Below the pieces are notes generated by a model. It worked only from the letters and a program-made list of their open reading frames with translations, was not told the origin of the DNA and did not search any database. DNA of 64,000 nucleotides from an uncultured Nitrososphaeraceae archaeon (lineage in GTDB: Archaea > Thermoproteota > Nitrososphaeria > Nitrososphaerales > Nitrososphaeraceae): the NCBI GenBank assembly GCA_963779615.1, contig CAVZZA010000003.1, positions 800,001 through 864,000 of the forward strand, in the 5' to 3' direction. Below are positions 17,292-51,798 of the stretch, piece by piece. Numbering within the stretch: position 1 is the stretch's first letter; each line of letters begins with the position of its first letter. The position numbers and the translations under genes were made by a program.

Positions 17292-19019
17292 ATGAAAAAT
17301 ATTGGACTCAAACGTCTTCCAAATGCTTACAAGAAAGAGAATATAGGATTAATCTCTGGACCACTATTATTTATCATTATACTTTTCTTTCCCTTTCCTC
17401 ATGATGCATCCTCAAACAATGCAAATACCGATTCGGGTAATTCACAATTTCCATTTTCTCCCCAAATTGCCTTGGGAACAATGGTATGGATGGTCATTTG
17501 GTGGGTTACCGAATGCGTACCATTAGGGTTTACAAGCCTTTTGGCGCCTTTTATTTTCATAGTTAGCGGAATTCTCACGGTTAATCAAGCATTGCCTAAA
17601 TTCTCTGATCCCATAATATGGATATTCATATCAGGCTTTGTTCTTGCTGCAGCGTTTAAGAAATGCGGGTTGGACAAGAGAATCGCGTATAAGCTTGCCA
17701 CATTCTATAAGGGAAACAATCCAAAGGTTGCCATATTCTTTATCGCATGCCTACCCGTGTTTTTACTTTCAATGACTGGATCCATAACAGCTTCCACAAC
17801 CATAGTGTTTCCTTTTGTATTGGCGTTTATGAACATTTTAAGCACACCAGTTGAATCCTCTCAAACAAACAAAAGCAATACAGATACTACAAATAACAAC
17901 AACAGCAATATTGCCGCCAGCCCTCACAAAAATGCCCCAAAAAAAGACAAAGTCAAAAAAAACACATATGCCGAGGCAAGTTTTCTTTCCTTGGGACAAG
18001 CTGCGACTGCGGGAGCAATGTTGCTTTTAATAAGTACGGCGCCCAACCTTATAGCCAAAGCTACTGTAGAAGACTTTGCACCGGGGAAAACAATCTCTTT
18101 TACAGATTGGTTTATAATAGGTTTCCCACATGCAGTTATGGGTTTGCTAATATCGTGGAATGTCATTTTCCTAATTTTAAGGCCAAAAATAGAATCTCTT
18201 TCTTCAGTTAGGTATCAGTTTAAGAATAGTTTGACTAAAATGGGTAAAATGACAACGGAAGAAAAAACAGTGTTGATGATACTGCTTGTGGCGCTGAGCC
18301 TATGGGTTGCGCCGTCACTAATAAGATCCCTTTATCCTCTTGATACCAATAACACCAACACAAATGAAAAGGCAGAGGAAAAGGGCATTTTGTTTATATT
18401 GTTGAGCAGTTTTGCAAATAATGTACCAGAATCGATTCCTGCTTTATTAATAATATTGGCAGCAGGATTAATCAGAATTAAAGGAAACAATAACAAAGAA
18501 GAAGGGACAAACAACAATTCTGCAGTAGCAAGTCATCCTATTTTAAACTGGAGTGAGATACTAAAGGCGATAGATTGGAACATCATATTTCTGTTTGGTG
18601 GCGGTTTGGTGCTGGGTCTTGGGATAGAGAACAGTGGCCTTGCGTCTTTGATGGGTGATCTGATATCAAAAAGTGTAGGAGACAATATGACAGAATTGAG
18701 CATATTTGCAATAAGTGCTATAATGGGTTTTGTGATGTCATATGCCTCATCCAACACTGCTTCTGCAGTGATAATGTGTCCTCTTGCTGCCTCTCTTGCA
18801 ATAGGTGCGGGTTTTAACCCTATTCCACCTATTATTGCAGCTGGTTTAGCGGCATCAATATCAAGTGCCATTCCTTCCACAACTCCACCTATGGCAATAG
18901 TATATTCTTCAAAGGCAGTTAGCATTTTGAACATGTTTAAGACAGGAATTATATCCGATATACTAAGGCTTGTCATTTTGATTACCATTGGTCCAATATT
19001 GATAGGTTTGGTTTACTAA
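17292..19019 (+). CDS. SLC13/DASS dicarboxylate or sulfate transporter
   Basis: WWVTECVP, GLDKRIA, STAPN, IDWNIIFLFGGG, SNTA, TTPP. Asn-rich loop insertions. Confidence 0.9.
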   Translation: MKNIGLKRLPNAYKKENIGLISGPLLFIIILFFPFPHDASSNNANTDSGNSQFPFSPQIALGTMVWMVIWWVTECVPLGFTSLLAPFIFIVSGILTVNQALPKFSDPIIWIFISGFVLAAAFKKCGLDKRIAYKLATFYKGNNPKVAIFFIACLPVFLLSMTGSITASTTIVFPFVLAFMNILSTPVESSQTNKSNTDTTNNNNSNIAASPHKNAPKKDKVKKNTYAEASFLSLGQAATAGAMLLLISTAPNLIAKATVEDFAPGKTISFTDWFIIGFPHAVMGLLISWNVIFLILRPKIESLSSVRYQFKNSLTKMGKMTTEEKTVLMILLVALSLWVAPSLIRSLYPLDTNNTNTNEKAEEKGILFILLSSFANNVPESIPALLIILAAGLIRIKGNNNKEEGTNNNSAVASHPILNWSEILKAIDWNIIFLFGGGLVLGLGIENSGLASLMGDLISKSVGDNMTELSIFAISAIMGFVMSYASSNTASAVIMCPLAASLAIGAGFNPIPPIIAAGLAASISSAIPSTTPPMAIVYSSKAVSILNMFKTGIISDILRLVILITIGPILIGLVY

Positions 19020-19434: not shown

Positions 19435-19790
19435 TTATTTTATTATTAATACCGGACCTTTACTATTGTGTAATACATTATGAGAGACTCCCCCTAATAA
19501 TGCCGTTTTAACCTTTCCGTGACCTATGCCTCCAATAACAATTTCACATCAAAATTACTCTTTTCACCATAATCAATCATAATGGATGCAGTGTAGCCAC
19601 CTTTTAAAAACACCACTTCAGGTTCCATATTGTATTTCTTCGATTGGTTTTTGCCAGATTCAAGAATATCTTTTGCTTCTTTCTCTAAAGATGCGATTAC
19701 AGAATGACAATTTTTTTGGGATTGGACATAAACAAACGGCGGTATTTCTAATACATATAAAACAGTTAACCAAAAGATAAAACCAAACCA
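19435..19790 (-). pseudogene. Universal stress protein remnant
   Basis: C-terminal GSIGHGKVKTALLGGVSHNVLHNSKGPVLIIK* is out of frame with the upstream LEKEAKDILE segment. N-terminus missing. Confidence 0.75.
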
Positions 19791-19809
19791 CATCAGACTA
19801 AAGTGTTAT

Positions 19810-20300
19810 AATCGCAATAGGAGCATCATAATTTCAACTATTCAGTTAATTCCATTAGCAAAAGAATATGCTTCCAAAGAAGAACGGTGGAGACAAATTC
19901 ATAAAAGATATGGCATCAGAGAACGGCAGTTTTATTCGACTGAGAAAGATAATTTCGCTTTAGAAAGTAGTTTTATTGACGAACATCTTACAAACTCTTT
20001 TATTCTTATGTTCAATGCTTTTGAACATTCATTTAGAGGCATATCTAAGGAATTTGATGATAAAATATATCCTCTCAACCCAAACTTGGGGGTTTATTTC
20101 CTAATATCATTGTCTAAACTAAATTTGTTGAATGCAGAGATGAACACATTTATAGAGATTGTCCTAGTAATTAGAAATTCAATTCATAATAACGGAATTT
20201 TCGTCGCAACTAAAGGTAATCCAGCAAAATCTTTACCCTGGAAAAATAAGACATATAATTTTTACAATGGTACCATCATTAATGTCGATGATGTTTGGCC
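19810..20300 (+). pseudogene. Truncated gene with RNSIHNNG (HEPN-like) motif
   Basis: Frame open from ~19810 with no convincing start. Contains FNAFEHSFR and IRNSIHNNGIF. 3' end runs into an antisense integrase stub. Confidence 0.5.
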
Positions 20301-20432
20301 CTCTAAACCTAAAAAATTAAAAAACCTTTCCAATCTTTTTGGATATTTTTCTCTGGTTACTGGCGACTTTAGCGCAAATAAATATAGAGACCAGACGTTT
20401 TGTTCTTGTTTGTTGTTTTGTTCTACTATCAC
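20292..20432 (-). pseudogene. Tyrosine integrase 5' stub (copy 1)
   Basis: GTG at 20432 reads VIVEQNNKQEQNVWSLYLFALKSPVTREKYPKRLERFFNFLGLEGQT, homologous to YALRSSESKRHYPKRLKVFLDYL at 27.1 kb. Confidence 0.8.
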
Positions 20433-20484
20433 CTTTTTTATACATTTTATTTTAGAACCCTCTTAAAAGAACCCGTTATAGGAA

Positions 20485-20503
20485 TGGGCCCAAGGGGGTT
20501 TGA
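20485..20503 (-). mobile_element. att-like tRNA 3'-end fragment (copy 1)
   Basis: Minus strand TCAAACCCCCTTGGGCCCA corresponds to T-loop, T-stem and acceptor strand of a GGGCCC-type tRNA. Lies 52 bp upstream of the integrase stub. Confidence 0.8.
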
Positions 20504-20904
20504 GTAAGGTAGATAAGCGGGTTCAATCAACTTTTGTACATAACTAAAAGGATTTAAATTGTGCAGATAAAGAAGTTCAATAACAATGTTAGGACACTAT
20601 AACAAACATAATTTCGTTAAAAGTCAGTAGTTATAGACAGGTCAAAGTAGAATGCGATTGAATGCTACTGTAAGACGGGATTCATGATTATACAGTCATT
20701 AGATTCTATCACATTTTTTATACGCAGTTTTGATAATAGCTTGGATACTGTCAGAAAAGAATTGAAGAAAGAATTCAAAAAAGATGGCCCTGACAAATAT
20801 TTCATGCCAAACTCTGAACAAAAATATACTTGTGTCACAAACATCCGGTATTGCTAATCTAATACATCAAATGGTGAAAAAGTTTAATTTTAGATTGGCT
20901 ATTA

Positions 20905-21054
20905 TTAAGTTGCAGTATTATCTTTTTCGGCATCGGCCTGATTGCTGTCACTTTGGGTTTCACTTACATCATATGCAGTGCTTTCTTCATCTAATGTTTC
21001 GTCTTTGAGGATTTTCTTCACCGCTTTATCCTCTGCAAAAACATCTTCACTCAT
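20905..21054 (-). CDS. Small acidic hypothetical protein
   Basis: MSEDVFAEDKAVKKILKDETLDEESTAYDVSETQSDSNQADAEKDNTAT. TATA-like TTTATAAA about 25-35 bp upstream. Confidence 0.45.
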   Translation of the reverse strand: MSEDVFAEDKAVKKILKDETLDEESTAYDVSETQSDSNQADAEKDNTAT

Positions 21055-21553
21055 TGCTGTAAATGATGAAACAAAGTATTTATAAATATCATAATCCAAG
21101 GAGATAATAACAATATCTTGCTTTAATCAATCCGTTTCATATTTATATTATAATTATTATGAATTCTGCGATTTCTCATTGTAAAATCCATATTTTTACA
21201 GCAATCAAAAAAGATGAGGGAAAATAATGCATATCCTCGGTCCGTAAATAGTTGAGCATGTGACATAGTGAGCGTGACAAATGTTCCTGTCACGTGATAA
21301 AATTAAATAAACTCTGGGGAGGAGTATGGAAAATTAATTATAATTCTGTGGACTTTAATGAAAGAAATTAAAAGAAAATGCTCATGCATCAATATAAAAA
21401 GACAACATCGATATGATTATATCTATTTATTATTAATTCTAGAGTTATGAATAACTTTGTTCTTTTTCTCTCTAGTAATAATGTACCATTTTAGAAGGTT
21501 TTATATAATTGTCACCTAAGGGATGATGACTTTGGCTTCGAAAAGTAGGGATA

Positions 21554-21570
21554 AATGCCGATATCGGTTC
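21554..21570 (+). repeat. 17-bp direct repeat with palindromic core (left copy)
   Basis: AATGCCGATATCGGTTC, identical to 23660-23676. Core CCGATATCGG is a perfect palindrome. Confidence 0.85.
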
Positions 21571-22081
21571 TCAATAAGAGATTCTACTAAATTACGTGAT
21601 ATAACCAAATTTAAAGATTATGGATTCATTTGTTATTACTCATGTGTAGTCATTTAAACTATATTAGATACCATTTTTTAGAATTCATCTGAATAACATA
21701 ATAAAAAAGGGTTGAATGAACAACAAATATTGGCCATGGCATGTTCCTTACCCTTGAACTGATGCTGTTACAATTGGCATGTTCCTTTCTGCATGCATTA
21801 CTTGAGTTACATACTGCAATACGAATCGTAAATATGTAGGTTTGTTAAGTCAACTCTTTTACATTTTCTTGGCTCATGGTTAAGTTAGATAAATCCACTT
21901 GTATCAAATAAAAAAGTCAACAAATTACTGTTAAAACAAGAATAACAAGCAAAGAGCATAGCAATCATAGTAATGTGATTGTAATTCGTGGGGATACGGT
22001 TCAAGGATGAAGATAATCCCTGAACATAGTGATGTTTTCTCGGGATTAAGGATGAAGCGCTATGTTTGAATATTCATTTTG

Positions 22082-23431
22082 TTATTTTTTATTTTTATGG
22101 ATTTCGTTCATGACGTATTGCATATAATCGACCATTTCAGTTTTATCCAATGACGTTTCAACTCCAGATGCTTCCGAAATTTTATCTTCAAGATTCTTTG
22201 CAATGGTCAATACTCGGGATTCTAATTCTTTATTTCTATAAGCAGTGCCAATACTACCAAGGAAATTGGCTTGCTCAGTTACAGATTTCCTAATTGATCT
22301 TAGAAGTACATTATCCCGCGAAACAATTTGGGCTGCCGAATATAGTCCTGAATAAATAAAGTAGCATGAGAATCCAATAAGAGAAATCGAAAGCAGGCCA
22401 AATGGCGGATATGCAGCCTGAGTAGCATTGGCAGATCCCGTAATATAGAAAAATAAAAATCCGAATGCAGCTAACATCAATTGAGTTCTGACTGCAGAGC
22501 CCATCTTAATGGTTTTTGCTATTGATAAGAAAGAGGTTCCAAATATGATTCCTGAAAGAAGTCCTGCAAAAGAGAATATGAGAATATTTAGGAAAGCATT
22601 TGCGTCACCAAAAGGATCTAAATACCCCAACGCAAAAAGAGGAAATTCTATATTGTAATAAATAAGAGATATAATCATTATAGACCAAAACTTGTGTCTT
22701 CCAATTCTGTGTAGATATCTATATAGCAATTTTACACTGCCTATCCAGGTTAAGATAAATGCAGTTACGGAAAAACCATTGTTAATTAAATTAATTTGAC
22801 TTCCGATAAATTCACTACTAAATTCAGGAAAATAAGCAACATTACCTAAAGAGATAATCGGTTCTTGCTGTGCCAATGTATCCAATGCGTAAATCAAACC
22901 GAATAACCCATTCGCAACATAGGCTATCATAGCAAGTGTAAATATCAGGATAATGTTATTTTTATCAAAATTCTTATACCATAGGATGAATGCTCTTGTC
23001 AATAGTCCCAATATACCAATCCAAATTCCAAAACTAATAATGTAAATAATGTATAGAAAAGCGGTATAATATTCTTGAAATATCGCAATCTGTAGAACAA
23101 CAGAAGTTAACATTATTACGATTATAATTTGTGATATGAATATTATAAAAAAAACTAATTTGAAATGAATGTATTTTACTTTTGTCAGTTTTTCGATATT
23201 TTTAACACGATAAATAATAAAAACAGATGATAAAATTAGAAATATTGTCAAACCTACATATAGAAGAATCCCAGGCAAAGAGGATACATATTCGGGAATA
23301 AAATCTGAGATAATACCGATCTGAGAATCTATAATAACAGAGATAATCATGAATATAAAGACAATCAGAATTCGGTTGTTTTTGGGTTTCACAGAAGATG
23401 ATATACCATCCACATAATTTTTAATGTTCAT
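22082..23431 (-). CDS. Polytopic membrane protein (~10-11 TM) with soluble C-terminal tail, uncharacterised Nitrososphaeraceae-type family
   Basis: 449 aa with alternating hydrophobic helices, YPPFGL, and tail LRSIRKSV..FLGSIGTA..SGVETSL..DYMQYV. Confidence 0.85.
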   Translation of the reverse strand: MNIKNYVDGISSSVKPKNNRILIVFIFMIISVIIDSQIGIISDFIPEYVSSLPGILLYVGLTIFLILSSVFIIYRVKNIEKLTKVKYIHFKLVFFIIFISQIIIVIMLTSVVLQIAIFQEYYTAFLYIIYIISFGIWIGILGLLTRAFILWYKNFDKNNIILIFTLAMIAYVANGLFGLIYALDTLAQQEPIISLGNVAYFPEFSSEFIGSQINLINNGFSVTAFILTWIGSVKLLYRYLHRIGRHKFWSIMIISLIYYNIEFPLFALGYLDPFGDANAFLNILIFSFAGLLSGIIFGTSFLSIAKTIKMGSAVRTQLMLAAFGFLFFYITGSANATQAAYPPFGLLSISLIGFSCYFIYSGLYSAAQIVSRDNVLLRSIRKSVTEQANFLGSIGTAYRNKELESRVLTIAKNLEDKISEASGVETSLDKTEMVDYMQYVMNEIHKNKK

Positions 23432-23659
23432 ACATATTATCGTTAAACGATGTTGTTGAATTTATAGAATTGTGAATATATTAAATAACCTCAACCCTAG
23501 GTATTAGACGGTGCGTCAAAAGTAAATATTTAGAGAATTTGTAACAAAAAAGGCTTTTCGTCCAGTATCGCATATGGAATAAATCTTAAGCGAATCCAAA
23601 TAACATTATCTATTTTTAACTAGAAATTTTATTTCTGGTCTAATCCATCCGTGGGTGCT

Positions 23660-23676
23660 AATGCCGATATCGGTTC
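23660..23676 (+). repeat. 17-bp direct repeat with palindromic core (right copy)
   Basis: AATGCCGATATCGGTTC, followed by CCTATAACGGATC. Confidence 0.85.
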
Positions 23677-23861
23677 CCTATAACGGATCACAAAACAAAA
23701 GAGAAATGTTATTCTAAATATCTTTAGATACTTTGGTTGTTTAGTCAAATTAAGGCTTATGTATAATGTATGCCAATCAGGAAATTCTTTAAACAACACG
23801 AGTATCCGGAGCCTCCAAAGCATATTATAACTTTTAAGATAAAGTAAGCATTAGTTATGAC

Positions 23862-24528
23862 GGCTCTGTTCACTTAACCATAAGGCTAAAGCTTGAAGGA
23901 GCTCTATCCCCTTTGTGGTTAGCAGAAACAGAACACCTTCATCATACATTGGCTATGGTCTTTATTTGTACTTCTCGGGGTTGTCCTTAAGGCGTGTTTC
24001 AGAAAGATTGTCTTGCTCTGTCAAGCGAAACCACGTTTCAGTCTGGAACTGGATTCAGAAATACAAACCTAAAAGGATGTATTCAAGAAGGAAAACGATA
24101 TTCGACTTTATCATTGATGAGACATTAATCAAAGCAGGCTCGGAGTTAGTGTGGCTGTGGGTAGCCATTGAGCCAAAAAACAGGCAGATTCTCGCATTGT
24201 CAATCTCCAAGGAAAGAAACATGTTTGTTGCAGAGAGGTTTATCTCAGGATTTATCAAGATTTGCGGAAAGCATCCGGTTTCAACAGACGGTGGCACATG
24301 GTATCCACAAGATTGTGGGTTCTTGAAGATAACGCATCACATCCATTCCCCTTTGGAGAAAAGCCTGATTGAAAGGACGATGCAGTAAATCAAGGACAGG
24401 TCTGAATGCTTTGACGACTACTTTCCCTGCAGGTTGAAGAATTGCAACCTAAAGCATGTTCGGAACTGGCTGAACCTGTTTGTAGATTACCATAACAAGG
24501 AGATAAAAACGCTTAAGTGAACACAGCC
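23862..24528 (+). mobile_element. IS6-family insertion sequence; transposase has one internal stop
   Basis: IRs GGCTCTGTTCACTTAA / TTAAGTGAACACAGCC. 8-bp TSD GTTATGAC (23854-61, 24529-36). IDET, STDGG, IER motifs. TAA at 24386 with the frame continuing to 24520. Confidence 0.95.
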
Positions 24529-24529
24529 G

Positions 24530-24874
24530 TTATGACATAGATTGATTCATTATTCTTTTATCATATGCCTCAATTATCTTTTGTAAACCATGTTCTTCTT
24601 CCTTTGCTGCATCGATAAATTCATCTAAAAAGCTGCATTCTTTCACAATTCTGACCTTATCAAAGAAATCCTGGTTATGTAATCTCTCAAGTTCTATGAT
24701 CTCAGAAGTAGATGATTCGTTATATGCAGACTTAATTAGATTTTTTTGAATCAGTAATCGGTTATAGCGACTGGCTGCAAAATAGCGCCTAAAGAGATTC
24801 AACCTCTCCTTCTTACCGATCCTCTCAAGTTCTCCTTTATCAGGGAATTTAAAATCAATCATCTTGTTGGTCAA
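24530..24874 (-). CDS. Hypothetical helical protein
   Basis: Clean, charged 114-aa ORF (FAASRYNRLLIQ). No family recognised. Confidence 0.65.
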   Translation of the reverse strand: MTNKMIDFKFPDKGELERIGKKERLNLFRRYFAASRYNRLLIQKNLIKSAYNESSTSEIIELERLHNQDFFDKVRIVKECSFLDEFIDAAKEEEHGLQKIIEAYDKRIMNQSMS

Positions 24875-25034
24875 CCGTAAGCAAATCTTGGTACTATCGC
24901 CTAATCAATATTTTCTTATTGAGTTTGGAATGGCAGATTTAAGTTGTAGTTTATTGTCAATTTCTCTTAGTATCCATTATTTGTGATATTTGATTGTAGT
25001 AAACACGTATAATTATGCCTTATCTACTTCCTCA

Positions 25035-25330
25035 ATGGATTAAAATCAAAATATGCGCAGATATGACCGTGCGAGCAGGATACTTTGACACTGGTCTGAA
25101 GGTTAGTGCTATCACCGGCCTTCTTTAGCTGTGCACTAGACTCCCAAACTGCATAGCCGATGAATGTGCCACTGCCACCAACGCCTTTGCGGAGCTGACC
25201 TGAAATGAATCCAGGCTGGCTGTTGACTAAAGGCGTATGATGACTTTATTAAGGTGTAATAGCCGCTCTACCCACACATTAAAATTTACACATAATAACT
25301 AAAGATACACATACCTACCCATTTTCTCTT
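25035..25330 (-). pseudogene. Antibiotic biosynthesis monooxygenase (ABM) remnant
   Basis: Minus frame SQPGFISGQLRKGVGGSGTFIGYAVWESSAQLKKA resembles the ABM pattern QPGFIS.QLH.G..GS..F.NYAVWES. Flanks are broken. Limits approximate. Confidence 0.75.
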
Positions 25331-25430
25331 TTCCTTCCCTTTCTTCTCCTTCTTTTTGGATTCTTAGTATATCTGCACTATAATTAGTAGTTTCTACTTG
25401 TCTGAGCACCTGATACACATCTTTATTGTT

Positions 25431-25552
25431 AAAAAATTAAAAAACCTTTCCAATCTTTTTGGATATTTTTCTCTGGTTACTGGCGACTTTAGCGCAAACA
25501 GATACAGTGACCAGATATCAGGTTCACGATTATTCTCATTTTCAATCAACAC
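25431..25552 (-). pseudogene. Tyrosine integrase 5' stub (copy 2)
   Basis: GTG at 25552 reads VLIENENNREPDIWSLYLFALKSPVTREKYPKRLERFFNFL. 25431-25498 is identical to 20311-20378. Confidence 0.8.
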
Positions 25553-25606
25553 TTTTTTCTTTACACCTTAATTTAGTAAAACCACTTAAAAGAACCGTTA
25601 TAGGGG

Positions 25607-25622
25607 TGGGCCCAAGGGGTTT
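25607..25622 (-). mobile_element. att-like tRNA 3'-end fragment (copy 2)
   Basis: Minus strand AAACCCCTTGGGCCCA, 54 bp upstream of the stub start. Confidence 0.75.
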
Positions 25623-25741
25623 AGTAATAGATATATTACGAATCCAAATGCAAAAATAAGGCCACATTTCTTTTTATATGGATTAATAATTCAAAAAATC
25701 AAGTAAAACAGGGAGTTTTTATCCAATAACCTATTACTATA

Positions 25742-26737
25742 ATGATGGATGAGTTAACACTCAAACAATTGAGGGGCTCTAATTTTTATTCCCCAGAAAT
25801 TATTGATCTTGTTTTTGATTCCAATAAAATGGTGGAAATTATAACAGACTGGGTCAATATTGCCGAAAAAGGATTTGATACGCTATGGGATCCAATTATG
25901 TTTGATTTTTTATGTAAATACTGTAGAGAGGGTATGTACCTAGCTAAAAGACAGATCAAGGAAAAAGGTATCAAAATACGAATGATTACCGAAACAACAA
26001 AAGAAAATCTCGGTTTCATAGACTCCCTGAATTGTCCTAATATGAGACATTTAGATGGCATTAGGGGCAACTTTGGAATTTTTGATCAACGAGCTTACAT
26101 GGTATACATTTTTCATAAAGAAAATGAAAAACCCGATCAAGCTCTTTGGAATAATTCAAAAGTTTTAGTGGACCAACAGCAAATTCTTTTTAACAAGCTA
26201 TGGAAAATATCAATTCCATTTTCTACTAGAAAAACAGAATTAGAGAATGCCGAAAACCCTCCCCGGAAAAAAATTTTTACAGACTATAAAGATATTCAGC
26301 AGGAACTAGTTTCAATAGTAGAACAGTGCAGAAAGGAACTTTGGATATTTTCTTCTACCAAATTATTTAATCACGTTATAAACAAAAACAATTTCCTGAA
26401 ATACTCTAACACACTTTTAAAAAAAGACATACGGGTCAAAATTCTATTTGATGGTATTGACCTAAACATACTGAAACAAATCCGTGAAATAAATAATACA
26501 ACTAGCAGTAATCAAATCCAAATCGGCTATACAAACAAGTTGGGAAATTTTAATGAACTGGTAGTAATAAATGACCAAAAATCTGTATTGAAGATAAAAT
26601 ATGACAATACCTTAAATCTAGGTGCTTCAGTATCAAATGAAGAACACCAAATAGTCTTGCAAGGTATCCTATTTGAAAAATATTGGAATGAGATAGAAAG
26701 TCTATCATCATTAAATAACATGACTAAAGGAGATTAA
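25742..26737 (+). CDS. Tandem TrmB/PLD-like sensor-domain protein without kinase module
   Basis: RMITETTKEN..RHLDGIRGNFGIFD..QQQILFNKLW and a second degenerate unit ending ILFEKYW. Resembles N-termini of Nitrososphaeraceae histidine kinases. No H or G boxes. Confidence 0.7.
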   Translation: MMDELTLKQLRGSNFYSPEIIDLVFDSNKMVEIITDWVNIAEKGFDTLWDPIMFDFLCKYCREGMYLAKRQIKEKGIKIRMITETTKENLGFIDSLNCPNMRHLDGIRGNFGIFDQRAYMVYIFHKENEKPDQALWNNSKVLVDQQQILFNKLWKISIPFSTRKTELENAENPPRKKIFTDYKDIQQELVSIVEQCRKELWIFSSTKLFNHVINKNNFLKYSNTLLKKDIRVKILFDGIDLNILKQIREINNTTSSNQIQIGYTNKLGNFNELVVINDQKSVLKIKYDNTLNLGASVSNEEHQIVLQGILFEKYWNEIESLSSLNNMTKGD

Positions 26738-26829
26738 ACTCCTGATAAATCACCGGTAATGATGACCACTCTTTCTTGTTGATATCTTGCAAATGCAAGC
26801 AACATTCCTTCAAACTTGTCACCGTTCTT

Positions 26830-27214
26830 TTAAATTGTAATTATAATTTTCCAGTTAATTATAATTCCATTCATTTCACAAAATAGCTTGACAGGTTTAA
26901 GATAGTTCTTTATGGTCTCTGTCGATATTTCTTTTCTTTCATCTCTTTGGTTTTGTACAGTAAAGAATTTGATAAGTTCGCCTTCCAACCAACTAACTCC
27001 CCTTTCTATAATCAGTCCATAAAATGAATTGGACTTTTCTTCGATTGATAAATCTTTGATTTGTAAATAATCAAGAAAAACTTTTAATCTTTTAGGGTAA
27101 TGCCTTTTTGATTCTGATGACCTCAAAGCATAGATAAATTTGATGAGGAGAAAGGCCTGCATTCTCACAGACTTGAGTAGTTGATGAAGACGATGGGGAA
27201 GAGAGCAAAGTCAT
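26830..27214 (-). pseudogene. Tyrosine integrase N-terminal fragment (copy 3, longest)
   Basis: ATG 27214, frameshift ~27140, then FIYALRSSESKRHYPKRLKVFLDYL...EISTETIKNYLKPVKLFCEMNGIIINWK. Catalytic domain absent. Confidence 0.8.
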
Positions 27215-27264
27215 TTAATTACAATAGATTTAGTGTGGGCCTTTAAAAACGAACAGATGTATTA

Positions 27265-27287
27265 TGGGCCCAAGGGGGTTTGAACCC
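27265..27287 (-). mobile_element. att-like tRNA 3'-end fragment (copy 3)
   Basis: Minus strand GGGTTCAAACCCCCTTGGGCCCA (GGG-TTCAAAC-CCCCT-TGGGCCC-A). No tRNA 5' half upstream. Confidence 0.85.
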
Positions 27288-27409
27288 TATATGATTGGTG
27301 GTTAAATAGTTTCTCTTATCAACATTTCAAGAATTCACCATATTGTTTTATAAAGAATTGAAAAGAAGAGTTCACATTATATTCTCAAATATGTTTCCTA
27401 ATACTATTT

Positions 27410-27874
27410 TCACTTTTTTTTGTTAATCTTATCAGGAACTACTGATTCCTTTGTCTGTTGGTTTAATTGTATTAAGACATCGGATATCGGAATATCAAAC
27501 TCATATGCCATTTGAAGTATTTCATCTATTTTGGATACAAATTCTTTTTCGCCTATTTCAAGTTGAAAGCTATAAACATTGATCTCTTCAAGCAATGATT
27601 CTAATTTCTCTTCTGGTAATCCTATTCTATCCAATACTTTTTTTAGTCTAACGGATGAAGCAAAATGATTTACGTCAAGACCTTCTTTTTTTAACACTAA
27701 AGCAAGCCCCCTCATCAAGTCAATGTCAGGAATGTCTTTTCTGGCCTGTTGATGGATATCCGTTACAGTCCCCGCACCAATGCCGTTGTTTTCTGCTATT
27801 TTGTTACGGGTAAATCCCTGGAGCCACTCATTTAATACCTTTGTTTTTATTGACTGGGGAATTTTGGCAACCAT
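27410..27874 (-). CDS. N-terminal HTH protein, probably truncated, mobile-element associated
   Basis: KVLNEWLQGFTRNKIAENNGIGAGTVTDI HTH pattern followed by a helical region. Confidence 0.7.
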   Translation of the reverse strand: MVAKIPQSIKTKVLNEWLQGFTRNKIAENNGIGAGTVTDIHQQARKDIPDIDLMRGLALVLKKEGLDVNHFASSVRLKKVLDRIGLPEEKLESLLEEINVYSFQLEIGEKEFVSKIDEILQMAYEFDIPISDVLIQLNQQTKESVVPDKINKKK

Positions 27875-27974
27875 TATTTATTTTAACAATTTATTAACTA
27901 CCGAAGTATATAAAATATAAAAAAAATATGGGTTGAAACATTATGCTTTGATTGTGCTTGTAATGTGAAGTCAT

Positions 27975-28094
27975 CATTTGACCACCATTTGACCACCATT
28001 TGACCACCATTTGACCACCATTTGACCACCATTTGACCACCATTTGACCACCATTTGACCACCATTTGACCACCATTTGACCACCATTTGACCA
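27975..28094. repeat. Tandem repeat (CATTTGACCAC) x ~10.9
   Basis: Ten perfect 11-bp units plus a 10-bp partial unit, with no spacers. Confidence 0.98.
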
Positions 28095-28569
28095 TATTAA
28101 AGTATTTGACGCTATTGCAGAGTATAAAACCATCATGAACAAATGAACATATTGATCTTAACAACGGGTTAGTAATATAGACGCTTAAAGGCTAATTTAC
28201 AAGGATATCATAAAGTTTTTGCCATAATGAATGGGTTCATAATCTAGTTAATGTAATTAATGCATAGTCACAAAAAATCTTCCACTTATAATGCTGCCAT
28301 ATGATCAGAATATAACAATAAACAAAGATGACCAATTTTACAATCGCCATAAAAATCACAATTATCATAAAGCCTTTTCCATGGTTAAAATAAAAACACC
28401 ATAGTCCAATTCAATGGCAGAGGTACAGGGTATATTGTCATATTGCTTTGATGCGAACGTGTACTGACTCTCACCTGATATAAAACACAGAGAATTTTTC
28501 CAAAATGCAAATGTTGAACTAGAGTTTGACACCATACTCAAGCACCACATATTCTATAATTACAAAAAA

Positions 28570-28842
28570 TTATGGGGCTAATGTTGTTTTGCTGTTCCAC
28601 TGCACGGTCCATTTTTTTAAGTAGAGGATAACCAAAATCGCATAAACCAAAAGTTTGACGGGAATTGAAAATGGAAAGGGAACAAGAAATGAAACAGGAA
28701 TGTTTATTACCCATATCAGTAGCAAAATCAACAAGAACCTTCTTAGTTTCTCTATCCTATATGCGGCCCACAAATTCAGAATGGGAATTACTGAAAACAC
28801 CATCTGTTCTCTGACGCTTATGATCTTGCTTTTAGTTTCCAT
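28570..28842 (-). CDS. Small membrane protein
   Basis: QMVFSVIPILNLWAAYRIEKLRR plus two TM helices and KKWTVQWN. Confidence 0.7.
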   Translation of the reverse strand: METKSKIISVREQMVFSVIPILNLWAAYRIEKLRRFLLILLLIWVINIPVSFLVPFPFSIPVKLLVYAILVILYLKKWTVQWNSKTTLAP

Positions 28843-29415
28843 TTATTTTTTCATCATGCCCATTTCATTGATTTATAGAGCCCCTTTATTTTAAATGCTT
28901 GATGTTAATGCTCTTTGAAAGGTTAAAACAACAGAGTTTGTTTTATGCATCCAAACAGCAATCATTTTTGTCAAATCATAATCAGTGTTACTATCCACAA
29001 TAAATAATTGATCTTATTCAGCATCATCAAAAAGAGTATCCCTAGCGGCAAATCTACAAACATACACCCATCTTCTGTAAAAAAACCCAATCCAATGCGG
29101 GAAGGGGAAGCTGACACGTGCATGAAAATATTGGGTCAGCTGGCATCAAAACCAACCAAGGTTTTCAATCTTTGCACCATTACCAAGGCATGCCTAGCCA
29201 TCGTAGAGGAAAGTGTTTGAACCCAGGCAAAGAGGTTTCTTTTTGGGAGAACAATCATCTTATGCATATAGGTAGGTTATGCCTGTGACACAACACAAAA
29301 AAACACCATTATCTGTGTTTGATGGTGACAACTTTCCCCCTTTTTAATTTTTTTCAAAAAACTATGAATATCAAGTACAATTTATGTACATCGGTTTTTA
29401 ATATTCTCTCTATAC

Positions 29416-30060
29416 ATGGCCTTACCAATGGAACTACTGAATTTTATCAACAGCGCCTTCATAATTCCCGATAACTTTTTCAACAAGGTTTTAACCTCTA
29501 GCATCCAGTTATTGGCAGTTGTTGAGCCTTTTGGGATAATACCAATATTGATAAACCTAACAAAGGAGATGGAAAAGGAAACAAGCAAGGCACTGTCAAA
29601 AACCGCCGCCGTAACATCTGCGCTGTTATTGATGGTTTTCGGAATCGCGGGAACACAAATTTTATCGACCTTTGGAATCACAGTTAGCAGTTTCATGGTT
29701 GCCGGAGGAGCTTTATTGTTTATAGTATCTTTGGAGATAATGAGGCACGGTGAATTGAGAAACATAAAGAATGAACTAAACAACACAGGGGTTGTGCCCA
29801 TTGCTTTTCCCCTGATAGCTGGACCTGGGGCCATTACCTCGGTAATGATTTCCCATCAGAATGACGGACCCATAGTGACAGTAATATCAATAATAATCGT
29901 AATCAGCATAACCTACCTTGTATTGCGTTTGATTAAGCCAATTTACAGGGTTTTGGGAAACAGAGGCTCTGAAGTGATTTCCAGGATTTTCGCGGTCATA
30001 TTAGCGGCGATTGCAATCCAGTACATAGTAGAGGGCTTGAGAAATATTATCATACGATAG
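29416..30060 (+). CDS. marC: MarC family membrane protein
   Basis: VVEPFGIIP, FMVAGG, VVPIAFPLIAGPGAIT, ILAAIAIQYIVEG. Confidence 0.93.
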   Translation: MALPMELLNFINSAFIIPDNFFNKVLTSSIQLLAVVEPFGIIPILINLTKEMEKETSKALSKTAAVTSALLLMVFGIAGTQILSTFGITVSSFMVAGGALLFIVSLEIMRHGELRNIKNELNNTGVVPIAFPLIAGPGAITSVMISHQNDGPIVTVISIIIVISITYLVLRLIKPIYRVLGNRGSEVISRIFAVILAAIAIQYIVEGLRNIIIR

Positions 30061-31235: not shown

Positions 31236-33479
31236 TTAAAGTATATGGCTTCCCATGTTTTTACTGCCGTTAGGGCCGTTGTTTTTTGAATTTATTTTCA
31301 TTTTTTCTTTTGCTCTAACAAAGTGATTCAGGGTTATTTTGAATTTTTCTAAATCTTGTTTTTCCATTTTAGGACTGGTGCTGTTTTTGCTATCGTTGTT
31401 GTTTTGCTCCTTAATTTTTGCATGCGCAGCTAGAAAGTCTCTCAACGCTATGACGGAGGCCGAATTAACCAATCCTTCAATCTCTGCGCCAGTAAATCCA
31501 GCAGTTAATTCCAGCATCTTGTCAACCGACAATGACTTATTGTCGATGGGTTTCTTTTTAGTGTGGATTTGTATTATTTGTTTCCTGGAATCAGCATCGG
31601 GAACTGGAATCTCTATGACTTTATCAAAACGCCCGGGTCTTAACAGTGCGTCATCTATAATATCAACCCTATTTGTTGCGCCAATAACCACAACACCATT
31701 AAGAATTTCTAACCCATCCAACTCCGTTAGCATTTGGCTCATCATCCTTTCAGTCACACCACTACCCGGCCCTCCAATTTCAGATCCTCTTCTTTGAGCT
31801 ATTGCATCCAATTCGTCAAAAAATACTATACATGGAGCAGCCTGTTTTGCTTTTCTGAAAACCTCCCGTATACCCTTTTCTGACTCGCCAACCCATTTGG
31901 ACAGTAATTCAGGGCCTTTAATGCTAATGAAGTTAGCCTCCGAATTGGAGGCCACAGCCTTGGCAAGCAGGGTTTTACCTGTTCCGGGTGGACCATAAAG
32001 AAGGATCCCTTTTGAAGGCCTGATATCGGCAAGGTCATATAATTCGGGATAGTTTAATGGCCATTCAGTCATTTCTACCAATTCCTGCTTTACATCTTTT
32101 AACCCTCCGATATCATCCCATTGAGTATCAGGCCTCTGGATTTGAAACTCCCTGATTGCAGACGGAGATACGTCTTTTAGCGCGTTGTTAAAGTCGGAAT
32201 TTGTTATAATTATCCTGTTTAACGTTTCAGGTGGAATTGGAGATTGTTCAATATTAATTTCAGGAAGAATTCGTCTTAAGGCCCTCATCGCGGCCTCTTT
32301 TGTCAGGACTTCCAAATCCGCGCCAACAAAACCATGGGTGATTTTTGATATCTTTGACAAATTTACGTCTTCATTCAAAGGCATTCCCCTGGTGTGGATA
32401 TTGAGTATTTCCAGCCGGCCATCCTCATCAGGAATTCCCAGTTCTATCTCCCTGTCAAATCGACCGGGCCTTCTAAGTGCAGGGTCTATTGCATCCTGCC
32501 TGTTGGTGGCCCCAATTACTACAACTTTACCCCTGGATTGAATTCCATCCATAAGGGTTAACATCTGTGACACCACTCTTTTTTCAACCTCACCTGTCAC
32601 TTCCTCTCTTTTTGGGGCAATAGAATCGATTTCATCAATGAATATTATGGACGGAGCATTTTCTTGGGCCTGCTTAAACGTATCTCTCAGTCTTTCTTCG
32701 CTCTCGCCATAGAATTTGCTCATAATTTCAGGACCGCTGATAGAGTAAAAGTTTGCGTTGGTTTCGTTGGCAACCGCTTTGGCCAGCAGTGTTTTACCGG
32801 TGCCTGGCGGGCCATAAAGTAGGACACCCTTAGGGGCCTCGATTCCGATTTTTTCGAACAATTCAGGATGGCGTATTGGCAATTCTATCATTTCCCTTAC
32901 TTTTTGTATTGGATCCTTCATACCGCCAATATCTTCATAGTTTATCCGTGGAATTTTTGGCGAAGGCTCTGTTTATAGTCACCCAAGGTAAATTTGGTGC
33001 CACTACCAACAATTAGCGGGCCATTGCCAGGACTTTAGGTTGTTTACTACAAAGGTAATCTTTTTTCCCATCAAATTTATGGGAATGGTGTCCATTTTTG
33101 ACACAACACGGCCCTCCAACAGACTTGGAAGGTAGTCGTCGAATCCAGAATATTCCAACTCTTCACTAGGCACCAGATTGACCTCTTTTGCTGCATGCGC
33201 AGTCCCAATTTTTTTGATGCGGACATGATCATCTATTCCCGATTCTAGAGCAGTTCGGGTGTACCCATCTATACGAACAATATTTCTGCTGTAGTCAGAG
33301 GACAGTCCAGACCACAGTCGTACATAACTGCATTTCTTTTTCCCTTTTAGTTCAATAATGTCACCAGTCACCAAGTTGAACTCGTCCATAACTTTGGGGT
33401 CAACAAGCGCTAATCCTTTTCCAACAAAGCGAATATCTGTTTCAGCAATTTTTAATAGTTTATCTTGTGAATTTTCCAT
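31236..33479 (-). CDS. cdc48: CDC48/VCP AAA ATPase (frameshifted near 32960-33030)
   Basis: N-domain in the 33003-33521 ORF. Two AAA domains with [20 protein letters not shown]. The YEDIGG linker joins them after a frame change. Confidence 0.93.
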
Positions 33480-33600
33480 TAATTTATCTCCCAGTTGTTT
33501 TGGAACATGTACATTACACATTGTAATAGTTATTACATAATATAAATTATCCTAACATAAAGTAAGATTTAATTTACAGGGCAAACAGTTATTACATAGA

Positions 33601-34527: not shown

Positions 34528-36332
34528 GTGTCAAAACTATTAAAACTTAAAACAGGAACATGGGATTTATCAGAACTAATAAAAAATCCTAAAGACGATG
34601 AGTTTTCCAGTTTTTTGTCATCGATAGATGAAAAGGTAAAACAGTTTGAAAACAAAAGAATCGGATCTAAAGCCAGACATTCCATTAAAAAGTTTTTTGG
34701 AATTGGTAAAGGATACTGAAACCATTTCTGAAAAGTTAAGTATCATTTCAGGATACGCTCATTTAAAATACGCAGAAGACACCTCGTCAAATGAGGCCGC
34801 CGCCTTAATGACCAAAATGAACATTTTTGCGACAGAGATATCAAACAAACTTCTTTTCTTTGACTTGTGGTTTAAAAAAGAATTGGATGAAAAAAACGCA
34901 AATCGTTTGATAGAAGGAGTTCCAAAAGATTACCAACAATACCTCAAACACGAACGATCCTTATCCAAATTTACGCTAAAAGAACCGGAGGAAAAGATTA
35001 TCAATATTCTTGAAACCACTGGAATTGATGCTTTAATCAAAATTTATGACAGAATGACTAATGGTTTTGAGTTTGAGTATATAGAGGTCAAGGGAAGGAG
35101 AAAAATACGAAAAATGTTCACTAACAAAGAAAAATTGCTTACGCTTGTGAGAAGTTCACGATCGACTGAAAGGATAGCCGCATACAAGTCATTGTGGTCG
35201 ACATATAAAAAAAACAGTGGAGTTCTGGGAGAAATTTACATTAACAGAGCATTGAATTGGTACAACGAATACATTGTCCTTAAGAAAATTTCCATCACCC
35301 ATTTCAGTAAGAAACCTTTACAACGACATAGATGATAAAACAATTGAAACATTGCTCAAGGTTTGCAGATCAAACGCGGTAATATTTCAGAAATACTTTA
35401 AGGAAAAAGCAAAGATGCTAAAACTAAAAAAATTGGAGCGCTACCACCTTTACGCCCCAATTAAATCCCAAAAACAGGAAAAGATAAATTATGACAAGGC
35501 CATGAAAACAGTTTTAGACGCATACGCAGGTTTTGACCCGAAATTTAGGCAGGTTGTTGAAAAACTAATAGAAAAAAAACACATTGATTCTGAACTTAGG
35601 AATAACAAGCAGGGAGGAGCATTTTGTTCAACAATTACTCCCGAAATAGATCCCTATGTATTGCTAAATTTTGACGGGACCCTAAGGGACATATCCACAA
35701 TCGCTCATGAATTCGGCCATGCAATTCACAGTGTGCTAGCTTCAGACAAACCAATAACCGTACAACACCCACCTTTACCACTAGCTGAAACAGCGTCGGT
35801 TTTTGGTGAAATGCTGTTAAACGACAGCATGTCCAACAACGTATCCAAAAAAGAGAAAAAAATACTGCTAGCAGAACAAATTGACGATTTTTATGCCACC
35901 ATCATGAGACAAACATATTTTACAATGTTTGAGGTTTCTGCTCATGACACCATATCTAAAAACAATGCAACCACAATAGACGAACTGTCGGACCTTTACT
36001 TGAGCAATCTAAAAGAACAATTTGGAGATTCTTTAAAGGTAACAGAAGACTTCAAGTACGAATGGCTATACATCCCCCATATCTATCACTCGCCTTTTTA
36101 CTGCTACGCGTATTCATTTGGCAATTTACTTGTGATGTCTTTATATCAACAATACAAAAATGAAGGAAAAGACTTTATACCAAAATATATCAGGATTCTG
36201 GCAGCCGGGGGTACAAAAAAACCCGAAGAATTGTTGTTTGATGAAGGTATAGACATAACCAAGGAAAGCTTCTGGCAAAAAGGTTTCGATTTGGTTAACG
36301 AGAAAATTACAGAGTTAAAAACTATTAACTAG
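34528..36332 (+). CDS. pepF: M3 family oligoendopeptidase F (two frameshifts)
   Basis: WDLSEL start, KQGGAFC, HEFGH zincin motif, LAETAS, IPHIYHSPFYCYAY. Frame changes near 34670 and 35290. Confidence 0.9.
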
Positions 36333-37713: not shown

Positions 37714-38270
37714 ACAATTTTTTAAGATAAACAATAAAAAAAGATTTCTTAAAAAAACAAAAAGCATGATTTATCAAAAGATCGACATATAAAAATAAAA
37801 AAAGATTCAAAAGATAACTTCAATAACACACTCTCTGTTGCCCAATTCTTTCCACACAGATGGAATTTGGCCAGCCGATTGTTTTGTTGAACGGATTTGA
37901 ATATGAATACAGGTTTCCTTTGTAAAAGGATGTATGGTGAACATACGCCCACACCGAGGTTAAAAACACGGTAAAAGATATTGTCAGGAAAGTTACGCCA
38001 CATAACCTGTCCAGCAAGTAGGTGTATGACATGGAAATGAATTTGGATTATGGCGAAGATACACAACAACCACAGAGCGATCATGCGCAAAAGATTTAAA
38101 ACGGCATAGGTAAGATAATAGCATAGAAATGGAAACAAAAAATATTTTTAACAAAATATTAAGTTGGATACGCCTTGTGAGAGCATCAAGAAAGCACAAA
38201 GTTACAGCTTAGGTCAATATGCTATTTAAGTAAAAATATTAAAAACATTTTTTATAATGTCCGATCTCAC

Positions 38271-38933
38271 GGCTCTGTTCACTTAACCATAAGGCTAAAG
38301 CTTGAAGATGTCCTATCTCCCAATGGTTTGCAGAAACAGAACACCCTCAGTGCATTAGCTATGGTTTGTATCTTTGTTTTCCAGGGCCATCATTGAGAAG
38401 GGCATCAGAAAGACTGTCCTGTTTTGTCAGGCGAAACCATGTCCCAATATGGAACTGGATTCAGATACACCATCCTCAAAGGATATCAACAAAAAGAAAA
38501 AAGATTTTTGGGTACATAGTGGATGAGACACTAATCAAGGCTGGTTCTAAATGCATCTGGCTCTGGGCTGCCATTGATCCAAAAGACAGGCAGATTCTGG
38601 CACCAAGCATATCCAGGGAGAGAAACATGCCTATTGCTGAAAGGTTTATCGAGGGTTTGGTCAAGACGCATGGAAAGTGCCCGGTATCGACTGATGGTGG
38701 AACGCGGCATCCCCAAGCATGCAGGTTCCCGAATCTAAAGCACCATATCCATTCCCCTCTGGAGAAAAGCCTGATTGAACGACCCACGCAGTATATCAAG
38801 GACAGAACAGAAAGTTTCGATGACTACTTTCCCTGTAGGGGAAAGAATTGTAAACAAAGCATGTAAAGAATCGGCGGCGGTTTTTTGTAGATTACCATAA
38901 CAATGAGTTAAAAATGCCTAAGTGAACAGAGCC
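38271..38933 (+). mobile_element. IS6-family insertion sequence, degenerate transposase
   Basis: IRs GGCTCTGTTCACTTA / TAAGTGAACAGAGCC. 8-bp TSD GATCTCAC (38263-70, 38934-41). VDET and STDGG motifs. Frameshifts near both ends. Confidence 0.95.
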
Positions 38934-39058
38934 GATCTCACTCATCAATAACTTATTAACTTTCTGCTAGTTATCTATTGCATTATTCTAAGTATTTTGT
39001 GAATTTAGCATCAATAAAAAATAAAAAATAAAAATTAGAGTTTAAAAAAAGAAAAAGT

Positions 39059-50417: not shown

Positions 50418-50950
50418 GTTGTATTTATTAAATACCTTCTTTAATATATTTTTGTTTCCATAAATAATAATAATAAATACAGAATTATGTTATAGTAAAA
50501 AGTAATATATTCTTATATGAGCAGGATAGACGATAAACTAATTATTAGATATCAACAATAAGCACCTATTTTAGGTCCTGCAAAACTTAAGAAAGAATTC
50601 TTTTTTGAATATCAATTAACGAAATTAATAAAAATAAGGTTAATTATCTTGTTGGATTTAATCTCAATAAAAAAAAATTATCATACCATCTAGAAAAACC
50701 AACACACTAACTAGAAAACAGATGTAAATAAAATAAATTTACAGATTGCATCAATCGTTTCTGGATTAAGCAAGTCACAAGTTTACAAGGGTCAAAAGAG
50801 CTTTGAAAACACTACGGGCATAAAATGGATTCATTATTTGAGTTCATTTAATCAGAAATAGAAGAATTTAATCTTTAGGAACTAGAAATACAAATGTTCT
50901 GTTTGAAAAGGTAAGATGGTATTAGATATGGTTTAAAAAAAAAGAGGATT

Positions 50951-51492: not shown

Positions 51493-51723
51493 AATACCTA
51501 TGTAAACAAGACTATTATATGTTTATAGGTCATTTTATACTAATCAAAACATAAATTATTCATGCATATCAATACAATGTTTAAAAATTCCTTAGAGGTT
51601 TGATTCGGTGTTTATAGAGGATTTACAAAGATCCTACTTATTTTGCAAGGTCACCATTCTCAATCGCTCAGCTTTACTCCATCATCCGTATTACGAGCCC
51701 TTCAAATGTTCTGTTTCAAAAAA

Positions 51724-51798
51724 AGCCTTGGGTGGGATTTGGACCCACGACCTTTGCCTTACCAAGGCAACGCTCTAGCCAGGCTGAGCTACCAAGGC
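51724..51798 (-). tRNA. tRNA-Thr(GGU)
   Basis: GCCTTGG acceptor, GCTC/GAGC D stem, TTGCC-TTGGTAA-GGCAA anticodon arm, GTGGG-TCCAAAT-CCCAC T arm. Confidence 0.95.

Follow-up and report, generated by a model that had tools for sequence, protein, structure and literature searches.

The window examined here is a 64-kb stretch of DNA from an uncultured Nitrososphaeraceae archaeon (GCA_963779615.1), corresponding to G000:C3:800001-864000 in a genome of 3.17 Mb that is assembled into 5 contigs and has 36% GC. Between about 19.0 and 29.4 kb the window contains an island whose GC content of 0.31 to 0.34 is set off from the 0.37 to 0.43 of its flanks, and which is bordered by a gene for a Na/sulfate symporter ending at 19019 and a MarC gene starting at 29416. 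The island carries three minus-strand modules at 27265, 25607, and 20485, each composed of a short repeat core, a spacer of about 50 nt with a TTTTAA box, and the start of a tyrosine integrase gene, an arrangement that a first-pass annotation of the sequence had described and that was confirmed here. The favored reading of the stretch, with a probability of roughly 0.8, is that of cryptic integrated elements that took the 3' end of tRNA-Met(CAT) as attachment site (att), came to lie in tandem, and have since decayed. Genomes are designated by G numbers, G000 being the genome of the window, and contigs by C numbers; coordinates given without a contig are those of the window.

Modules with truncated integrase genes

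The att copies, labeled A to C in the direction of the minus strand, and the parts of the former elements that adjoin or lie between them are as follows, with left and right end types (L and R) named after a comparison of junctions across the genus.

27265..27287, minus strand: att copy A, 23 nt identical to the 3' end of tRNA-Met(CAT), with the 13-nt core at 27265-27277
27215..27264, minus strand: spacer A, measuring 50 nt, of left-end type L2 and with a TTTTAAA box; a homologous spacer is present in G016:C109
26830..27214, minus strand: integrase stub A, matching Phage_int_SAM_1 (E 3.5e-4), frameshifted, with similarity reaching about residue 113 of about 420
25607..25645, minus strand: att copy B (core 25607-25619) and, adjoining it, the Rb-type right end of the unit beginning at A
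25394..25606, minus strand: module B, consisting of an L3 spacer of 54 nt with a TTTTAA box and an integrase stub of 52 aa whose similarity ends at 25430, about residue 45
23640..23688, minus strand: degenerate element end of Rc type (right end at 23660-23688), with the GAACCGATATCGG motif followed by a decayed core
21540..21582, minus strand: second degenerate element end of Rc type (right end at 21554-21582), with the GAACCGATATCGG motif and a core decayed beyond recognition
20485..20530, minus strand: att copy C (core 20485-20497) together with a right end of type Ra
20262..20484, minus strand: module C, consisting of an L3 spacer of 52 nt with a TTTTAA box and an integrase stub of 56 aa, with similarity to about 20292-20298, about residue 50

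The core is the 13-mer CCCCTTGGGCCCA, which is exact in all three copies and in direct orientation, with start-to-start distances of 1658 nt between A and B and 5122 nt between B and C. No fourth match was found in the 64-kb window when up to 2 mismatches were permitted, and in dinucleotide-preserving shuffles of the window the mean number of exact matches was 0.01, with three or more in 0 of 100 shuffles. The spacer that follows the core measures 50 nt to an ATG at 27214 in A, 54 nt to a GTG at 25552 in B, and 52 nt to a GTG at 20432 in C. Each of the three contains a TTTTAA(A) box, which, from what is known of archaeal promoters, is presumably the TATA element of the integrase gene. Two degenerate Rc ends lie between B and C in addition to the recognizable junctions; the island therefore holds the remains of at least five junctions, and att copies evidently decay at this locus.

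The open reading frames (ORFs) of the three stubs were compared with G000 by tblastn, which identified two full-length integrase relatives: a 421-aa protein encoded at C4:214153-212888, directly 3' of a tRNA-Arg GCG, and a second at C3:386396-387652, directly 3' of a tRNA-Ala TGC. A search for a full-length integrase, as the first-pass annotation had advised, thus succeeded as far as the genome is concerned, but none lies in the window or beside a tRNA-Met core. The earlier identification of the stubs as integrase N termini is supported by their alignment to these full-length proteins, which extends from residue 1 to about residue 50 in stub C, about 45 in stub B, and about 113 in stub A. Similarity to all relatives at the DNA level ends at 20292-20298 for C, at 25430 for B, and at about 26842-26872 for A, and stub A is in addition frameshifted near 27150, after its ATG at 27214 but ahead of the conserved part. 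The catalytic domain (PF00589) occupies residues 130 to 320 of the 421-aa relative, at 26.3 bits slightly below the cut-off of 27.1, and residues 141 to 331 of a 507-aa relative (31.1 bits). All three stubs therefore break off before the catalytic domain, as had been noted, because they end near residues 45, 50, and 113 and the domain starts at residue 130. PF00589 had no match in the window, and no integrase fragments other than the three stubs were found in the island. Without the catalytic domain, the units are remnants and not live integrative elements, and for purposes of annotation the stretch should be read as mobile-element remnants and the three short "integrase" ORFs as pseudogenes.

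Remnants of this integrase family across the whole of G000 are strongly one-sided. An N-terminal piece alone is present at 15 loci, about half of which end between residues 42 and 63, whereas internal or C-terminal fragments number 2 and full-length genes likewise 2. This one-sidedness would be explained if the genes eroded progressively from their 3' side, with the tRNA or att end as the anchor.

Donor tRNA, intact relatives, and core copies in the genus

The 23 nt ending at copy A are identical to the 3' end of a tRNA-Met(CAT) located at C3:264819-264892 on the minus strand, 556 kb from the array. This match upholds the view that the repeats are att copies of a tRNA 3' end, and it identifies as donor a tRNA-Met in place of the Ile/Val-type tRNA that had been guessed. 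The donor was typed as Met by ARAGORN, although the tRNA-Ile2 of archaea may likewise carry a CAU anticodon. The only tRNA in the window is a tRNA-Thr(GGT) at 51724-51798, so that the earlier statement that no intact matching tRNA is present there holds.

The genome-wide search that had been proposed for finding the donor recovered 12 copies of the 13-mer in G000, among them the donor tRNA-Met, and 0 copies of a reversed-pattern control. All but one of the 12 lie on the minus strand of C3, where in addition to the three in the window they start at 264819 (the tRNA), 263345, 251161, 232276, 177771, 172368, 122129, and 117207; the remaining copy is on C2 (C2:1548-1560). Core groups away from the tRNA are thus formed by 177771 and 172368, by 122129 and 117207, by the three copies of the window, and by the copy on C2. 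The core at 232276 adjoins lipA and gcvT/gcvH, a position from which it follows that several core groups are orphaned from the tRNA; att copies can evidently end up far from it. A 305-aa short-chain dehydrogenase/reductase gene is present in identical form after core 263345 and after core 177771, which indicates a segmental duplication. Across the genus the 13-mer was found in 32 of 34 genomes (97 matches, compared with 5 for the control), with the highest count in G000, and the three single-contig genomes contain one copy each, the tRNA itself. One tRNA-Met site is therewith heavily used in this genus of soil ammonia oxidizers.

Intact counterparts of the modules are present in related genomes. 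In G044, tRNA-Met is followed by a 55-nt spacer of L3 type and an intact 405-aa integrase gene; the upstream neighboring gene is the same and the tRNA-Met is identical. Stub B shares 25 of 41 residues with this integrase, and in another related metagenome-assembled genome (MAG) tRNA-Met is followed by an integrase that is identical to stub C at 36 of 47 residues. G016:C109 contains a spacer and an integrase of the type of module A (L2), the latter full length but frameshifted. In G037, an L3 spacer and an integrase matching residues 3 to 358 come after tRNA-Met; at G037:C208 6041-7206 this integrase runs directly into a second, partial copy of tRNA-Met of about 48 nt. This copy, 1.1 kb after tRNA-Met, could mark a very short unit, an element with a long att, or an assembly problem of the MAG.

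The association with tRNA genes extends to further loci of the integrase family, whose members belong, by their record titles, to the Nitrososphaeraceae ("Ca. Nitrosocosmicus" and "Ca. Nitrosopolaris"). Among 48 integrase loci from public genomes, the 33 at which the match started near the N terminus were scanned for tRNA genes, the other 15 being dropped. A tRNA on the same strand ends just upstream of the integrase at 13 of these 33 loci, including tRNAs for Met (twice), Ala, Arg, Lys, and Ser, whereas none was detected at the other 20, some of which have little upstream sequence. The first-pass annotation had contrasted the position of att upstream of the gene with the split integrase of SSV1; the position stands, but it is not an oddity. 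For this family it is normal that att precedes an int gene left unsplit, because 13 of 33 loci show this layout and the G044 integrase is intact. No relative of the intact integrase was found in a viral contig collection that was queried with this single protein.

Flanks were compared at 27 junctions, 12 in G000 and 15 in loci of relatives, and recurrent left ends of L2 (A type), L3 (B/C type), L4, and L7 and recurrent right ends of Ra, Rb, Rc, and Rd were distinguished. In these terms, junction A of the window reads unique flank-core-L2, junction B Rb-core-L3, and junction C Ra-core-L3. The L7 left end precedes a different tyrosine recombinase in G002 and G004, of a lineage that is unrelated to the stubs of the window and yet sits at the tRNA-Met core as well. 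The same 13-nt core thus serves no fewer than two unrelated lineages of tyrosine recombinases. A recombinase of the L7 type is also present in G000 at C4:251950-253400, where it follows an intron-containing tRNA and has one frameshift.

Cores are arrayed on the same strand in G002:C119 (4 copies), G004:C31 (4 copies), and G044:C1 (3 copies). The window array is accordingly one of several core groups, with 12 copies in its own genome and similar same-strand arrays in relatives, and the special platform for integration that had been suggested does not describe it. The pairing of L3 with Ra in the B-C unit recurs in two units of G002. As a general delimiter of units, strict pairing of left and right ends was tried and dropped, the other pairings being mixed across arrays. 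Pieces of the island recur in other contexts in G002:C220, G004:C36, G009:C278, and G016:C109. The unit order of the window was not found in any relative, all of which are too distant or too fragmented for such a comparison.

Formation of the array and mobility of its units

Successive site-specific integration followed by loss of the integrases, which the first-pass annotation had already inferred, remains the best explanation of the island. In a live element, attP would correspond to the last 13 to 23 nt of the tRNA, to judge from the layout and from general knowledge of tyrosine recombinases, and about 50 nt past attP, behind a TATA-like TTTTAA box, would lie the element's own unsplit int gene (class II, pNOB8/XerCD-like). 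Recombination with the tRNA end or with an earlier att copy would insert the element and leave one more direct copy of the core, and repeated insertion would produce an array of units made up of core, spacer, int, and cargo. Later deletions would have stripped the units of their catalytic regions and of much cargo, so that what was left became fixed ("gene capture"), and genome rearrangement or deletion would have cut the array out of, or off from, an array anchored at the tRNA. Signs of decay in the island include the two degenerate element ends, the insertion of an IS6-family element, and remnants of ABM-type and Usp-like genes.

A number of observations weigh against this history. No tRNA heads the array, and the 70 nt upstream of the 23-mer of A contain no trace of the 5' part of the tRNA: the alignment score was 0, a value reached or exceeded by all 2000 shuffles. 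The DNA upstream of A is not recognizable as an element end, and no closing partner core was found in the window beyond either outer end of the array, so that the array cannot have formed in place by the simple model without a further event. End types are paired inconsistently, from which it follows that unit boundaries may have been reshuffled. The helix-turn-helix (HTH) gene next to A was considered as a marker of an element family ending in a core att and was rejected, as a core is nearby at only 1 of 30 loci, the window's own; the gene belongs to a multi-copy family present in 30 of the 34 genomes. Comparison is limited to relatives of other species, with at most about 83% DNA identity and fragmented assemblies.

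For the origin of the array, relocation of part of a tRNA-anchored array is the preferred reading, at about even odds. The gene found 2.4 kb past tRNA-Met in G012 and G015 has its G000 counterpart at C3:752.7 kb, where it lies in the opposite orientation to the tRNA. This displacement, the position of core 232276 beside lipA, and the orphan core groups together imply that G000 was rearranged around att copies more than once. On the proximal side of the island, 29364 is the point, shortly before MarC, from which similarity to G018 is regained, and this edge is a synteny breakpoint because upstream of MarC all four relatives compared (G003, G010, G011, and G018) differ. G018:C5 is collinear with G000 from C3:746 to 761.97 kb and then continues with MarC (window 29364), 67 kb being absent at that locus; the absent segment (C3:761971-829364) carries ordinary accessory genes. 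Part of the 3' end of the PAC2 gene is retained in G018; the break is therefore a deletion or rearrangement in G018 and no proof of an insertion in G000. The distal edge is not fixed by synteny, since in G013 and G008 the symporter does not come after the GSDH homologue.

Alternatively, the array may have been built where it now lies, on a second tRNA-Met or on a long att copy left by an earlier element, whose 5' part was later destroyed so that 23 nt remained. This is considered unlikely, with a chance well short of even. It would fit the 23 nt of tRNA identity kept at A, compared with 13 to 18 nt in the other right-end types, and the existence of long tRNA copies such as the partial one of about 48 nt found 1.1 kb after tRNA-Met in G037; the breakpoint on the MarC side in 4/4 relatives likewise suggests a flexible spot. 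However, the 5' part of the tRNA has left no trace although the 23-mer is perfect, and none of the six relatives' loci that were scanned (0/6) has a tRNA upstream of MarC.

Whatever its origin, the array raises the question of mobility, for the first-pass annotation had allowed that its units might be moved in trans. That they are still-mobilizable cassettes, archaeal counterparts of bacterial cis-mobilizable elements (CIMEs) that have lost their own integrase and kept attL and attR, is improbable. An incoming tRNA-Met-specific element would integrate at a core, and its integrase would excise it alone or with resident units, moving cargo such as a 331-aa gene of the A-B unit. Consistent with this, the three cores are exact and in direct orientation, and the A-B and B-C units, bounded by exact cores and without a functional integrase, fit the sequence definition of a CIME as worded in the account of streptococcal islands in PMC5704250. 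Intact cognate integrases are present in related genomes, and end types are mixed between arrays, as would be expected from core-core recombination. Within G000, however, no intact integrase lies beside any tRNA-Met core. PF00589 had 3 matches genome-wide (E up to 0.01), at C1:517.6 kb, C4:213 kb, and C3:387 kb, none of them at a tRNA-Met core, and the L7-type homologue at C4:252.1-253.4 kb, the sole one with more than 31% identity, is frameshifted and located at another, intron-containing tRNA. At both degenerate Rc ends in the island the core has decayed, which implies that att copies are not maintained.

Public sequence data, consisting of contigs from four runs at low depth (word shares of 0.05 to 0.11), contained no excision product, although data of such depth cannot show one reliably. 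None of the contig joints in the four runs equals a precise excision of A-B (1658 nt) or B-C (5122 nt). In run X4, a single contig links a B-like spacer with a core and exactly 23 tRNA-identical nt, the shorter side measuring 24 nt; this joint resembles the tRNA-Met/L3 junction of a relative and is indistinguishable from the product of a deletion between A and B. The A junction itself had 0 matches in a metagenome scan with a 25-nt exact pattern.

Also improbable is the extension of this idea in which orphan att arrays are working secondary landing pads, where the integrase of an incoming element excises integrase-less units together with itself. If true, it would amount to an archaeal form of accretion and mobilization by which cargo spreads between strains of soil ammonia oxidizers and new att sites are seeded off the tRNA. 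Orphan att copies, should they still recombine, would provide extra entry points for mobile DNA.

A misassembly, in which the array was placed here by a mis-join at repeats in the 5-contig assembly, is very unlikely. The genome does contain many repeats, including about 60 copies of an IS6-family element and the 12 cores, and no available read set bridges the island edges. On the other hand, short contigs of the same strain from three public soil or outdoor runs match pieces of the island at 99 to 100%, none of them spanning its outer edges, a relative at about 95% has the same HTH-side flank running into core A, and the IS6 copy within the island carries its own target duplication.

The integron-like nature proposed in the first-pass annotation, which would mean a capture platform in which a resident recombinase inserts promoterless cassettes at a dedicated site, is close to untenable: the resemblance is limited to a superficial repeat-cargo-repeat pattern, an array of repeat-bounded units with unrelated genes, whereas the window contains no intact or resident recombinase and no intI, attI, or attC, the repeats are copies of a tRNA 3' end and, judged by sequence without an examination of their folding, not sites of the attC type, every unit was once an autonomous element and still has an integrase remnant and a promoter-like box to itself, and the same modules occur in relatives as ordinary tRNA-adjacent integrative elements.

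A decayed, tRNA-derived array of integrated elements has counterparts in several described systems. She et al. (2001-2004) reportedly described "gene capture" in Sulfolobus, in which integrated elements are fixed once their integrase is inactivated, with tRNA-fragment repeats and int fragments as footprints. The island is similar to these elements in its fixation upon integrase inactivation and in its tRNA-fragment and int footprints, but it differs from the Sulfolobus SSV type, where int is said to be split by integration, in that att is upstream of an unsplit gene that was inactivated by later deletion or frameshift. An SSV-type ("suicidal," class I) integrase does not account for the modules, as att precedes the start codon, the homologue in G044 is intact although integrated, and no int(C) fragment was found in the island.

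Tandem arrays of integrated elements of this kind are already known. Krupovic et al. (2019, PMC6563490) report that integrated elements of Thaumarchaeota target tRNA 3' ends in 57% of cases, with a short att (median, 17 bp), and that those with tyrosine recombinases form arrays through re-use of one site; tandem integration and loss of the integrase after integration have been described for archaea in the account of PMC8371274. As described in PMC6563490, the thaumarchaeal cryptic integrated elements with XerC/D-type integrases share with the window a tRNA 3'-end target, a short att (13 to 23 nt here), an unsplit integrase gene at one end, accessory cargo that includes UspA-like genes, and arrays formed by site re-use. 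The window array is unlike them in that all of its integrases are truncated, it is detached from the tRNA, and the 12 copies of one core in its genome are distributed over several groups. For streptococcal islands of integrative and conjugative elements and integrative and mobilizable elements, PMC5704250 gives a sequence of integration, decay to a CIME that keeps attL and attR, and further accretion at the retained site, and the history proposed here has the same three steps. Unlike those islands, the array is in an archaeal host, has no conjugation genes nearby, and lies off the target gene.

Cargo and other features of the window

The remainder of the island consists of cargo between the modules and of two outer ends, listed here from the proximal to the distal side.

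27288..29364, minus strand: proximal island end, with a 154-aa HTH ORF at 27410-27874 and an 11-bp tandem repeat at 27950-28116
25742..26737, plus strand: cargo ORF of 331 aa, apparently intact, of no curated family
25027..25245, minus strand: remnant of an ABM-type monooxygenase, C-terminal half only (PF03992, E 0.0015, under the Pfam cut-off; a weak match)
24530..24874, minus strand: intact 114-aa ORF of no curated family, with a paralogue at C3:564384-564740 (89% DNA identity)
23854..24536, plus strand: IS6-family element, a simple insertion, the coordinates including its direct repeats (insertion sequence at 23862-24528; DDE_Tnp_IS240, E 5e-6; terminal repeats)
22082..23431, minus strand: cargo ORF of 449 aa, intact, a multi-pass membrane protein by its sequence, of no family; a copy in G002:C220 has 83% DNA identity
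19020..20261, no strand assigned: distal island end, with an ORF remnant without assignment and a Usp-like pseudogene

Searches of the cargo proteins against NCBIfam (0 of 9) and PADLOC (0 of 6) returned no matches. Among the functions assigned to the cargo in the first-pass annotation, the IS6 element is borne out by its DDE_Tnp_IS240 domain and terminal repeats, the ABM remnant has the weak match given above, and the membrane protein corresponds to the 449-aa ORF, which matches no family. The calls of a "sensor protein" for the 331-aa ORF and of a "HEPN-like remnant" for a 152-aa ORF found no support from protein families. Look-alikes of the 331-aa protein retrieved with a language model are Nitrososphaerota proteins, some of them PLD-like or TrmB-like, which serves as a lead only. 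Distant homologues of this ORF lie near att copies in G016 and G044, and in G004 homologues of the 331-aa and 449-aa proteins adjoin.

The IS6-family element at 23862-24528 has the 8-bp direct repeat GTTATGAC on both sides. An 8-bp target duplication is usual for the IS6 family. Elements of about 667 bp of this type, such as those at 23862-24528 and 38269-38934, are present in about 60 diverged copies genome-wide, with 65 to 77% identity; the family is old and large and probably contributes to the scrambled synteny of the genome.

The proximal end of the island (27288-29364) contains neither a tRNA nor an att copy. Just upstream of the 154-aa HTH gene, at 27950-28116, lie about 13 head-to-tail copies of the 11-bp unit CACCATTTGAC, and four more copies of the unit are found at C1:527119-527163; as a sequence pattern, this repeat might be an iteron-like or protein-binding array. 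In the distal end, the ORF remnant spans 20008 to about 20290 on the plus strand and the Usp-like pseudogene about 19440 to 19793 on the minus strand.

Elsewhere in the window, two genes appear split. The N domain of CDC48 is encoded by an ORF at 33003-33521 and its AAA part by another at 31236-32921, and a peptidase M3 is divided between two overlapping ORFs at 34646-35335 and 35274-36332; these splits are either frameshifts, pseudogenes, or errors of the assembly consensus. The tRNA-Thr(GGT) at 51.7 kb was considered as the anchor of a larger element enclosing the island and rejected, as it is followed neither by an integrase nor by a repeat of its 3' end. Just 3' of this tRNA, a gene for a low-complexity, repeat-rich secreted protein is bracketed by the 14-nt direct repeat AAACAGAACATTTG, located at 50888-50910 and 51700-51722.

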